Positions 401 through 3,350 of a DNA stretch of 64,000 nt are shown here, piece by piece. The notes beneath the pieces are model-generated. The model saw only the letters and a program-made list of their open reading frames with translations. It was not told the origin of the DNA and ran no database searches. The first letter of the stretch is position 1, and every line of letters starts with the position of its first letter. Made by a program: the position numbers and the translations under genes. This stretch comes from Candidatus Latescibacterota bacterium (GTDB lineage: Bacteria > Latescibacterota > UBA2968 > GCA-2709665), in assembly GCA_965219455.1 (NCBI GenBank), contig OZ244744.1:5152001-5216000 (forward strand), given 5' to 3'.

Positions 401-518
401 GTCTGGAAAGTATCCGGGACGTGGGACTGATTTTTTTTACTTGTGGGATACTTTTGGCGAAAATGCAGATCTTTATTAGTACCGCGCGGGATGTTCGCAA
501 CATCGTTGGAGTCCTGAT

Positions 519-1886
519 TTGAAGACACTTGAAGATCGAGACCTGGTCCGGCTTGCGGTATCCGGAGAGACGTGGGCGTTTGGCCGCCTGGTGGAGCGCT
601 ATACCCGCCGTATCTACGGCAGGGTCTTGAGTGTCGTCAGGCAGCCTGAAGAGGCGGATGATCTGGTTCAGGAGATCTTCCTGCAGGCGTACCGCCGCCT
701 CGGACAACTGCGCGACGGTCGTCGGTTTTCCGGCTGGCTGCTGAAAATTGCGGACAATGCGGCCTTCAGGTGGCGCCAGCGGCGAATGGTGCAGATCCGT
801 TTCGAGCAGCTCTTGACAGCGGAATGGGGCGAACACGCCGTCGTCGAATCGGAGGCGGAGCGAGAGGCACGCATGATGGTCAGGCAGGCGATTCGCCAGC
901 TTTCAGATGCGCATCGGGACGTGATCGAACATCATTACTTCAAGGGTCATTCCTACGAGGAAACGGCCAGCCAGTTGGGCCTGCAAATGAACACGGTCCG
1001 CAGCCGCCTGCAGAAGGCGAGGCAGCGGATCCGAAAGGAGATGAGCGAGATGAAAAACGGTGGACAGACCTACGATCTTACGGCGCAGGATCTTCAAGCA
1101 CTCTATTGGGCGACCCGGTTTGTGAGCCGGGACGAATCCCGTGGACGGCTTCAGGGGGTCTGCCTGGACACGGGCGGACTCGTTGTGGCGACAGACGGAG
1201 CGAGGTTGCTGCTGCGTACACTGGAGGGCGCGCAGGACCTGGAGACCCAGGTGATCCTGGGGCCCGGGTTTGAGCTTGACTCGCACCGGACAAAACGGGC
1301 AAATCTATCGATCGAGGATGAACAGGCGATGCTGTGCGCCGCGGGAGAGGAGGATCTGGTTATTCCGATTATCAAGGAACCCTATGTAAACTATGAGGCG
1401 GTCATTCCCGAGGCGGCGGGCATTCGTGTTAGGGTGACTGCGGGTGAATTGCTGAGAGCAATTAATCTGATTTCCGAACATCTTGACGCTCGACATCCGA
1501 CCTCCGCGACGTGGACATATCTGCAAAAAGTCGAGATCCAGATTTCCGCGGCGCTCGGGTCGCTTTCTCTGACCACGTCACGAGATATGGGTTATGTTCT
1601 CAGGGAGGGAAAAGGCGGCGGCATGGTCTCAATGGATGATGCCCCCTGGACCGGAGTTCCATATTGGAGGTACACCACATCCGTTGAGAGCGAGGTTACC
1701 CTGGACGACGCACCGCACCCATTCAGGATCTATGTAAATCACGCCTTTCTGAGCGATGTTGTATCCGGAATTGAAGCAGAAGGGCCGCTGGACATTTTCT
1801 TCGGCGACCCGCGGCAAGCTCTCCTTTTCGTCTCAACAGACCATCCGGACCGGAAGGCATTGCTGATGCCGTTGCGGATGGAGTAG
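519..1886 (+). CDS. ECF (sigma-70) sigma factor with C-terminal DNA polymerase III beta-clamp-like domain
   Basis: Region 2 (EEADDLVQEIFLQAY...FSGWLLKIA) and region 4 (SYEETASQLGLQMNTVRSRL). The C-terminal half has DnaN-like motifs VSRDESR..LQGV, VATDGARL, YVNYEAVIP, VNHAFLSD and terminal LLMPLR. TTG start with GGAG RBS. Confidence 0.8.
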   Translation: MKTLEDRDLVRLAVSGETWAFGRLVERYTRRIYGRVLSVVRQPEEADDLVQEIFLQAYRRLGQLRDGRRFSGWLLKIADNAAFRWRQRRMVQIRFEQLLTAEWGEHAVVESEAEREARMMVRQAIRQLSDAHRDVIEHHYFKGHSYEETASQLGLQMNTVRSRLQKARQRIRKEMSEMKNGGQTYDLTAQDLQALYWATRFVSRDESRGRLQGVCLDTGGLVVATDGARLLLRTLEGAQDLETQVILGPGFELDSHRTKRANLSIEDEQAMLCAAGEEDLVIPIIKEPYVNYEAVIPEAAGIRVRVTAGELLRAINLISEHLDARHPTSATWTYLQKVEIQISAALGSLSLTTSRDMGYVLREGKGGGMVSMDDAPWTGVPYWRYTTSVESEVTLDDAPHPFRIYVNHAFLSDVVSGIEAEGPLDIFFGDPRQALLFVSTDHPDRKALLMPLRME

Positions 1887-2193: not shown

Positions 2194-3009
2194 TCAATGT
2201 CCGCGAGACGCCGAGCAGGTATCCCTCAAGACCGCGGTCACAGGCTCCAGGGAGGCGCCAGGAGCCAGTACGACATCGTATACAGACCGGTATTGTTCGA
2301 CGTGGTCGCAGTCGGCGGGGAAGGCAAAGCTGAGCAGGCGGGCGTGGCTGATGCCTGCAGCCATCTTTATATCTTCGATCGTGTCTCCAAGGAGCAGCAG
2401 GTTGCGGCGCCCGGCGAACTCGGGAACGATGGCCTCGTTCAGGGTGTGTTTGTTCAGGCTGTGGATAAGCGGCGTCTTGTAAGCCACCGCAATACCGTTC
2501 GGGTCAAAGACCAGCGTGTTGGCAACGATCATGACATTGGCGGTTTGTAAGCCATCTGCGGCGAGTCGGGCTTCGATGATTTCCTTGATGCCCGCGGACA
2601 GAATGATAAGGGGTATGCGGCGATCGTGGAGGGTTTCAAAAAAAAGGCGCGCACCATCTCGAAGTTGCGGCCGATTTTCGCTGACAATCCGATGGATCGT
2701 CTGTGTGCTGAATTTGTAATCGAGCAGCAGATCAAACTGCCGCGACCACCATCGAAGAAAGTGAGGCGACTTAACGCGTTCGGGCAAATCGATCGCGCGT
2801 TCGATTTTTCGATAGCGTTCAAACAATTCCTGGTAACGCCGGTTGAACGCCTGCCCAAGATGCCCACTGTTCGCGATAACCGAACAGGTGGACTGATCGC
2901 TGCCATCCTCCCCGGTGGATCGCGTCAGCGTCCGGTCCCAGTCGCTGACAACCAGGAGCCTGTCCGGGCCGTCGGCGTGAATTTGCTTCAGTTTGTAACG
3001 CCATCGCAT
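2194..3009 (-). CDS. HAD-family pyrimidine 5'-nucleotidase (NT5C3/UMPH-1-like)
   Basis: VVSDWDRTLT motif I, ILSAGI motif II, IHSLNK, LLLGDTIEDIKMA motif IV. Confidence 0.8.
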   Translation of the reverse strand: MRWRYKLKQIHADGPDRLLVVSDWDRTLTRSTGEDGSDQSTCSVIANSGHLGQAFNRRYQELFERYRKIERAIDLPERVKSPHFLRWWSRQFDLLLDYKFSTQTIHRIVSENRPQLRDGARLFFETLHDRRIPLIILSAGIKEIIEARLAADGLQTANVMIVANTLVFDPNGIAVAYKTPLIHSLNKHTLNEAIVPEFAGRRNLLLLGDTIEDIKMAAGISHARLLSFAFPADCDHVEQYRSVYDVVLAPGASLEPVTAVLRDTCSASRGH

Positions 3010-3038
3010 GCGGTATTCAGGCGTTCCGGGATGAATTT

Positions 3039-3350
3039 CTATTGCGAGGTTCCGGATTCCAGGGACTGGGACAGCACCTTTTTCAGAATCTTTCCGGGTT
3101 TGAACATGACTTTGCGGCGGGCGGGCACGTATACCGTTTCGCCGGTGCTGGGATTACGCGCCTGGTTCTTTTCCTTTGTCTCCTTGACTTCCCAGGAGCC
3201 AAACCCACGTATCTCAATACGTTTGCCTTTGCAGATGGAAGACGTCATGGCTTCAAAAAGGACGTCGACGGCTTCTAAGGCTTTGGTTTTGGGATGGCCG
3301 ATGTTGTCCGAAAGGTACCGTGCCAGAGAAGCCTTCGTGATCGTTGCCAT
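3039..3350 (-). CDS. HU/IHF family DNA-binding protein (IHF-beta-like)
   Basis: RIEIRGFGSW...ARNPSTGETVYVPARRKVMFKPGK. Confidence 0.92.
   Translation of the reverse strand: MATITKASLARYLSDNIGHPKTKALEAVDVLFEAMTSSICKGKRIEIRGFGSWEVKETKEKNQARNPSTGETVYVPARRKVMFKPGKILKKVLSQSLESGTSQ

Follow-up and report, generated by a model that had tools for sequence, protein, structure and literature searches.

What does a sigma factor do with half of a replication clamp? The question is raised by a gene at positions 519 to 1886 of a 64,000-nucleotide stretch of DNA from Candidatus Latescibacterota (contig OZ244744.1 of assembly GCA_965219455.1, positions 5,152,001 to 5,216,000 of the forward strand), here called the window and numbered from its first letter. 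A preliminary description made from the letters alone had read the open frame as a sigma factor of the extracytoplasmic function (ECF) type fused to domains II and III of DnaN, the beta sliding clamp. That architecture is confirmed: sigma regions 2 and 4 are joined to diverged DnaN domains II and III, and DnaN domain I is missing. The use to which the half-clamp is put can be answered only tentatively. In the reading favoured here, which is close to an even call, the fused half-clamp is a built-in regulatory extension of a new type, probably peptide-sensing, that packs on its own sigma core.

An ECF sigma factor joined to part of DnaN

The gene and the parts of its product are arranged as follows.

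508 to 511, plus strand: Shine-Dalgarno sequence GGAG, 7 nucleotides 5' of the TTG start and kept in the alignment of relatives
519 to 1886, plus strand: open reading frame of the ECF sigma/half-clamp fusion, 455 amino acids, stop codon included, with a TTG start
588 to 785, plus strand: sigma region 2 (residues 24-89), Pfam PF04542 (Sigma70_r2), E 9.4e-14
771 to 827, plus strand: linker motif W..RR..Q.RFE..L..EW between sigma regions 2 and 4 (residues 85-103); across 43 sequences, its columns are either invariant or conserved to at least 90%
873 to 1031, plus strand: sigma region 4 (residues 119-171), Pfam PF08281 (Sigma70_r4_2), E 1.3e-13
1059 to 1409, plus strand: part resembling DnaN domain II (residues 181-297), with VATDGARL and YVNYEAVIP, aligned by hhalign onto E. 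coli DnaN 125-249, in keeping with the VIA-align ranges
1410 to 1883, plus strand: part resembling DnaN domain III (residues 298-455), ending in LLMPLRME, aligned by hhalign onto E. coli DnaN 250-366

All 13 close relatives in the alignment have the same TTG start codon. The sigma part comprises residues 1-178 and is matched by region 2, region 4 and ECF models only, with no region 1.1 or region 3. Against the NCBIfam ECF superfamily model TIGR02937, the fusion protein scores 91.3 bits, where the cut-off is 42.9. Having regions 2 and 4 and lacking 1.1 and 3, it is an ECF (group IV) member of the sigma-70 family. With each of the 24 specific NCBIfam sigma models listed, it stays below the cut-off of the model, the top one being PRK11922 with 99.3 against 204, and the solved sigma structures closest to the sigma part are those of RpoE/AlgU-like factors. 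The linker motif, a new observation of this analysis, consists of W85, R88, R89, Q92, R94, F95, E96, L99, E102 and W103 in the alignment of 43 sequences; Q92 is also at least 90% conserved across 77 sequences of the wider family.

The C-terminal extension is 275 amino acids long. Searched as a single sequence, this tail has no Pfam match at E of 10 or below, DnaN models included; phmmer with the single sequence against the PDB reaches DnaN only at E 0.009, and a precomputed match to PF02768 exists for just 1 of 48 homologues. Because single-sequence searches barely detect the DnaN tail, these proteins are annotated merely as "sigma-70 family RNA polymerase sigma factor". A profile of 43 family sequences recovers solved beta clamps from the PDB, beginning at E 4.2e-12. 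Comparison by hhalign of a 28-sequence tail alignment with 16 DnaN sequences, E. coli first, gives 99.3% and E 1.8e-20 over 233 columns at 17% identity, and places residues 3-274 of the tail on 125-366 of E. coli DnaN. The DnaN-like motifs that had been picked out by eye, and their order, are borne out by this alignment, in which each one sits on its DnaN counterpart.

Structure prediction agrees with the profiles. AlphaFold models of the fusion protein have a mean pLDDT (predicted local distance difference test) of 79.2 in a first run and 86.8 in a second run with a deeper alignment, and the predicted template modelling score (pTM) of the whole protein rises with the deeper alignment from 0.49 to 0.60. 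The matches listed by Foldseek for the tail model are exclusively beta clamps, with a top E of 3.2e-12. VIA-align superposes model residues 181-454 onto residues 121-364 of a clamp chain (Z 16.6, root-mean-square deviation 6.0, 229 aligned residues), and its alignments to E. coli DnaN chains cover 123-365. Thus the profile and Foldseek comparison that had been proposed for the C-terminal part finds the DnaN fold there, and the Pfam matches to the two sigma regions, the family profile, hhalign, Foldseek and VIA-align all agree on the architecture. Similarity in a protein atlas reaches at most 0.86, below the 0.9 asked for, toward clusters resembling DNA polymerase III beta, and provides leads only.

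The lack of domain I was also described correctly. The end of sigma region 4 and the start of domain II are separated by a gap of only about 5 residues, and a hidden Markov model of domain I matches 0 of 78 family representatives, defined as those ranking above the first ordinary DnaN in the profile search. The genome itself has one ordinary dnaN (L051:1456-2652), and the fusion tail is the sole diverged DnaN copy in it.

The fusion is the regular form of a family. A word-index search with the tail returned 48 homologues, nearly all of 442-480 amino acids, and sigma domains are present in all 43 that have at least 366. An exhaustive profile search found 49 representatives at E of 1e-30 or below, and 773 at 1e-10 or below, the latter number including ordinary DnaN. 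The sigma part is present in 46 of the 78 family representatives and in 35 of 35 that are at least 400 amino acids long, and the 32 without it are all of 348 amino acids or fewer. At least one of these short entries (P0052, 288 amino acids on a 969-nucleotide contig) has a cluster mate of at least 90% identity with 466 amino acids and is therefore a fragment. A different short entry, P0073 (324 amino acids, from a 2.1-kb metagenome contig), carries the half-clamp after an N-terminus with the pattern CxxC...CxxC, which resembles a zinc ribbon rather than a sigma factor and has no Pfam match; it may represent a second architecture of the half-clamp module.

Within the phylum, the fusion gene was found in 55 of 151 sampled genomes, in each of the 55 as a single copy and one long open frame. 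The positive genomes fall in four families of one class (16 of 18, 14 of 30, 22 of 64 and 2 of 2 genomes), and ten other families gave 0 of 36; in the genus of the window, the gene is present in 14 of 14 genomes. By record title, the closest loci belong to Candidatus Latescibacterota, with some labelled Gemmatimonadota, and members at 25-30% identity come from Terrimicrobiaceae, Opitutaceae and Lentisphaerae records. The one organism label retrieved for the most distant subfamily is that of a gammaproteobacterial metagenome-assembled genome, and a locus search for this subfamily with a generic region 2 pattern returned ordinary ECF factors covering residues 1-210 only.

The retained groove and the lost ring

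The reference for the peptide-binding pocket of the clamp was the list of 18 residues (subsites I and II) in section 11 of PMC11139829. Eleven of the 18 are identical in the fusion when mapped by hhalign with E. coli numbering (R152, L155, T172, G174, R176, L177, V247, N320, M362, P363 and R365), and three are conservatively replaced (V360L, Y323F and M364L). The 11 of 18 contrasts with the 17% identity of tail and DnaN overall. Mean conservation within the family is 0.75 at the 18 pocket positions versus 0.59 at all positions, and only 10 of 20000 random sets of positions reach 0.75. N407, M450 and P451, which correspond to N320, M362 and P363, keep a conservation of at least 90% over 77 sequences, including some with only 23-30% identity to the window protein. 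The half-clamp therefore appears to retain most of the hydrophobic peptide-binding groove, and may bind peptides.

The features that make DnaN a ring on DNA have changed. Two inserts specific to the family stand where the ring interface would be.

1485 to 1520, plus strand: insert PRHP..W.Y (residues 323-334), left unaligned to DnaN by hhalign, just past the position of DnaN I272/L273
1608 to 1682, plus strand: second insert DDAPW.G.PYW (about residues 364-388), an insertion relative to DnaN in hhalign, at the acidic interface loop E298-E304

Within 28 sequences, H326 and Y334 of the first insert and W383 of the second are invariant, and both of these aromatic and histidine-rich inserts lie on the edge of domain III that formerly met domain I. 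I272 and L273, given as the hydrophobic dimer-interface pair of DnaN in section 5 of PMC11139829, map to E320 and H321 of the fusion protein. In the acidic interface cluster E298-E304, 2 of 5 acidic positions are still acidic in the window protein. The four channel-helix segments, as delimited from the alignment and not from a solved structure, have a mean net charge of -5.3 in 28 fusions (range -11 to 0) versus +1.3 in 16 DnaN sequences.

Because the interface residues are replaced, inserts stand at the interface and the channel segments are acidic, the tail is not a DNA-encircling clamp. The alignments thus indicate that the half-clamp no longer has domain I, an interface for dimerisation or a basic DNA channel. 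The preliminary description had called the tail a non-ring clamp, and the exchange of I272/L273 for glutamate and histidine, together with the acidic channel helices, upholds this. Its premise, that domain I is required to close the ring, is true of the DnaN dimer, but protomers of two domains might in principle form a trimer as PCNA does.

Promoter, possible internal start and neighbourhood

Two further pairs of signals, one upstream of the gene and one at the junction of its two parts, are new observations of this analysis.

446 to 451, plus strand: -35-like element GGATAC, which stands upstream of the fusion gene with constant spacing in 24 of 28 loci by the loose pattern and in 20 of 28 by the strict one
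467 to 472, plus strand: -10-like element AGATCT (family form ..RWCW), 15 nucleotides past the -35-like element
1035 to 1040, plus strand: in-frame internal Shine-Dalgarno sequence AAGGAG (codons K173 and E174), present as (A/G)AGGAG in 26 of 27 loci
1050 to 1052, plus strand: junction ATG (Met178), 9 nucleotides after AAGGAG, possible start of a free half-clamp of 278 amino acids

In the rest of the same loci, the bipartite promoter motif occurs at a background of 0.037 (loose) or 0.008 (strict) per 300 nucleotides. It is shared with Verrucomicrobiota and Lentisphaerae loci, the upstream regions of which are otherwise unalignable. The arrangement GGATAC-N15-..RWC looks like an ECF-type -35/-10 pair and resembles the RpoE-type pattern GGAAC...TCT. 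Conservation of an ECF-type promoter across phyla, upstream of the gene for the sigma factor itself, suggests positive autoregulation from this sequence.

In a whole-genome scan with a position weight matrix, the site of the gene itself ranks first with 28.5 bits, followed by one of 17.9 bits inside a long open frame, and the strict pattern occurs a single time in the 5.84-Mb genome, at the fusion gene. A looser pattern shows no excess in this genome at the 15-nucleotide spacing (19 matches, versus 12-35 at other spacings). A partial match of 17.0 bits lies about 78 nucleotides before the start of a 1158-residue PIN_12 protein (L078:3380-6856, minus strand) in the same genome. This gene was considered as a conserved target of the promoter and rejected: a query of its initial 319 residues finds a relative in just 5 of 19 family genomes, so that it looks like an accessory gene. 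Scans for consensus sigma-70 promoters and terminators gave no more matches than shuffled sequence.

Hints of expression and of a sponge-associated habitat come from contigs of two metatranscriptome runs of a single study (X19 and X20, labelled "sponge metagenome"), which cover 488-945 and 1004-1905. One pair of contigs is at about 92% identity, and is therefore taken to come from a related strain. The contig left ends, at 488 and 493, are 16-21 nucleotides past the -10-like element, which is a weak hint of a transcript start, as assembled contigs do not reveal where transcripts begin and such libraries may contain DNA. Positions 200-487, 946-1003 and those beyond 1905 are uncovered, and no conclusion is drawn from the gaps.

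The signals at the junction suggest that a free half-clamp may also be made. The arrangement (A/G)AGGAG-N9-ATG is found there in 26 of 27 loci, representing about 6 of 7 separate lineages, and a core like that of a Shine-Dalgarno sequence precedes just 41 of the 267 remaining ATGs that lie in frame inside these genes. The wobble bases of the junction sequence are fixed, when gene-wide GAG accounts for 60% of glutamate codons and AAG for 58% of lysine codons. All 43 sequences of the family alignment have Met178, and its conservation is at least 90% in 77, with variable residues around it; gene callers have placed 278-residue products at the junction ATG in three entries (P0014, P0025 and P0034). 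One reading of these facts is that the gene specifies two proteins, such that the free half-clamp started at Met178 would act in trans as an anti-sigma factor or as a competitor of the fused copy. Against this, K173, E174 and M178 may be kept for reasons of the protein or as a relic of a two-gene state, the related sequences are not independent, and the short entries that seem to be stand-alone half-clamps come from short contigs and look like fragments, as P0052 is of the 466-residue type. As an account of how the half-clamp works, the two-protein arrangement is unlikely, and it could coexist with a fused half-clamp that regulates its own sigma core. If used, the junction start would add a case of nested genes in regulation.

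The neighbours of the gene offer few clues. Upstream is a transglutaminase-like gene. Downstream and convergent are genes for a UMPH-1-type (pyrimidine) 5'-nucleotidase and an HU-family DNA-binding protein (2194 to 3350, minus strand), followed by a small protein with no Pfam family and an ankyrin-repeat protein. The statement that no anti-sigma gene is adjacent stands insofar as seven neighbouring genes scanned with Pfam include no recognisable anti-sigma family. Synteny is limited to close relatives, and no neighbour is conserved beyond them. A subgroup at 46-48% identity has the nucleotidase and the HU gene downstream in one locus (L015) and the nucleotidase alone in another (L016). The genes downstream of distant members have no common theme, and include those for an aminotransferase, a CBM9 protein, a RecJ-like protein, a BlaR1-type peptidase, an ankyrin protein and other ECF factors. 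One distant locus (L023:4114-9650) is a cluster of sigma factors with extensions: the fusion gene lies between two long ECF sigma genes, one of which (634 amino acids) has TPR repeats after region 4. In another (L026:8874-12119), the RecJ-like gene, with DHH, DHHA1 and RecJ_OB domains in 1081 amino acids and a long N-terminal extension, lies downstream of the fusion on the same strand.

Readings of the half-clamp and comparison with known systems

The favoured reading, of a regulatory and probably peptide-sensing extension, can be put as a sequence of steps. The half-clamp would have been exapted from the replication sliding clamp to give a self-contained sigma factor with no partner anti-sigma factor. 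It would pack against the sigma core and the conserved arginine-rich linker, holding the sigma factor inactive or active, and the acidic face that formerly met DNA may cradle that linker. A peptide or protein tail filling the retained groove would then shift the conformational balance of the sigma factor, and active sigma would transcribe from GGATAC-N15-..RWC promoters, that of its own gene included. This mode of working is proposed by analogy with the fused extensions of ECF41, ECF42 and ECF238; the contact with sigma, the binding of a ligand and the direction of regulation are inferred.

The contact was modelled by splitting the protein at residue 180 and predicting the complex of sigma part and tail in three runs, along with 3 controls. 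The complex scores 0.48 (runs 0.48, 0.54 and 0.26) and the best control 0.00; at least 45% of contacts are common to the runs, and the partner has a pLDDT of at least 77. In the calibration of this score, 58 of 80 solved complexes and 2 of 110 mismatched pairs came up to the mark, and scores of 0.60 or below within it belong to 7 of the 80 solved complexes and to both mismatches that passed. The prediction is therefore weakly suggestive of a tail that docks on the sigma core, and the conserved linker motif points in this direction too.

Several points weigh against a peptide sensor that packs on its own sigma core. Pairs that pass at such a complex score are false more often than true, unless the interaction was already probable, and the linker is not confidently docked, with a pLDDT below 50 at residues 94-114 in the first AlphaFold model and at 103-110 in the second. 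Four of the 18 pocket residues are changed (H175A, P242V, R246A and V344R), among them H175, the residue that bridges both subsites. The clamp pocket on which the preliminary description built is thus kept at the identical and conservatively replaced residues, with their above-average conservation in the family, and is altered at these four; the ligands suggested there, clamp-binding proteins, clamp-targeting toxins or antibiotics, are candidates only. The positions of the pocket also rank with the structurally most conserved ones of DnaN, and the fold may be part of the reason why they are retained. No ligand of the half-clamp came to light, and the genome has no second strong promoter site, and therefore no regulon to back any particular signal. 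Two of the seven neighbours have no Pfam family and could in principle encode a novel anti-sigma factor.

Some of these points also serve a simpler view, in which the half-clamp is a passive appendage, be it a scaffold for stability or oligomerisation or a handle for degradation, and binds no ligand at all, and regulation is purely by positive autoregulation of transcription. No ligand or partner emerged, the conserved autoregulatory promoter alone could give a switch, and conservation of the pocket may be structural. That view is nevertheless unlikely. Purifying selection has kept surface residues of the pocket and two aromatic and histidine inserts across sequences only 20-35% identical, and the conserved linker motif co-occurs with the tail.

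Another possibility is that the half-clamp tethers the sigma factor to the replisome, docking it on proteins with clamp-binding motifs (polymerases, the clamp loader's delta subunit or MutL) or on DnaN, and so coupling transcription to replication or DNA damage as a cellular counterpart of late transcription in phage T4. There, as described in PMC7892883, a sliding clamp activates transcription. This precedent, the largely retained pocket and the RecJ-like gene downstream of one distant fusion would all fit. However, no replication or repair gene is found among the conserved neighbours, the interface for pairing with DnaN domain I is not conserved, and the T4 clamp is a ring loaded on DNA, whereas the channel face of the fusion is acidic; the tether is accordingly judged quite unlikely. 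A long shot of a related kind is that the sigma factor senses the state of the replisome: peptide tails that dock on DnaN, or phage or toxin mimics of them, would fill the groove and release or activate sigma, and free half-clamp from the internal start would set the threshold. If true, sigma factor, anti-sigma factor and sensor would form a one-gene circuit built from a replication protein.

Clamp rings contain six domains, 2 x 3 in DnaN and 3 x 2 in PCNA or gp45, and since the tail has exactly two clamp domains, three tails might form a ring that carries three sigma factors along DNA, but the net charge of the channel helices (-5.3, range -11 to 0), a second helix of domain II that is not predicted as a helix in either AlphaFold model and two inserts on the domain III edge that would be the interface make this highly improbable.

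ECF sigma factors provide one of the main routes by which bacteria signal, and their fused extensions have proved, type by type, to be distinct sensing mechanisms. No published description was found of an ECF sigma factor fused to a sliding clamp, so the reuse of a replication hub protein as an ECF extension appears to be undescribed in the literature searched, and standard annotation misses it. Neither the ECF reclassification (PMC7826278) nor a paper on ECF evolution (PMC7671368) uses the words "clamp", "DnaN" or "polymerase III" in its main text, and in that of a review of non-canonical ECF factors (PMC8999054) "clamp" and "DnaN" do not occur; an unnamed extension of this kind could still be listed in the supplementary tables of these papers. 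The MerR-DnaN fusions mentioned in the preliminary description did not turn up among the 10 listed of 214 literature matches. As the clamp groove is a well-understood site for peptides and drugs, the peptide-sensor hypothesis is directly testable, and the conserved promoter is a ready reporter.

The nearest relatives in design are the ECF factors with C-terminal extensions treated in PMC7826278 and PMC8999054, namely ECF41 (SigJ, with a SnoaL-like extension), ECF42 (with TPR repeats) and ECF238 (CorE, with a cysteine-rich extension). Like these, the fusion has an extension of more than 50 amino acids (275) after region 4 and no adjacent anti-sigma gene, and is probably autoregulated. As in the ECF41 and CorE-like factors, which according to PMC8999054 pair a motif in the linker between regions 2 and 4 with the extension, a conserved linker motif is coupled to the tail. 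The single copy and the unbroken frame in all 55 positive genomes also speak for a regulatory extension. Unlike ECF41, ECF56, ECF294, ECF295, ECF42 and ECF238, the extension is a two-domain beta-clamp fold, rather than a SnoaL-like, TPR or cysteine-rich one.

With DnaN itself (E. coli b3701), the tail has in common the fold of domains II and III along with their order, the motifs VATDG.RL, Y..V.P and LMP.R, and 11 of 18 pocket residues. It differs in lacking domain I, in its replaced interface, acidic channel helices and two inserts in domain III, and in being sigma-fused and, at about 17% identity, below all Pfam DnaN thresholds. In T4 late transcription (gp55, which is sigma-like, gp33 and the gp45 clamp), as covered in PMC7892883, a promoter-specificity factor is likewise physically linked to a clamp fold with a pocket for short motifs. 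In T4, however, gp45 forms a trimeric ring of its own that is loaded on DNA, and the sigma-like proteins bear the binding motif, whereas here the sigma factor itself carries a non-ring half-clamp and its pocket.

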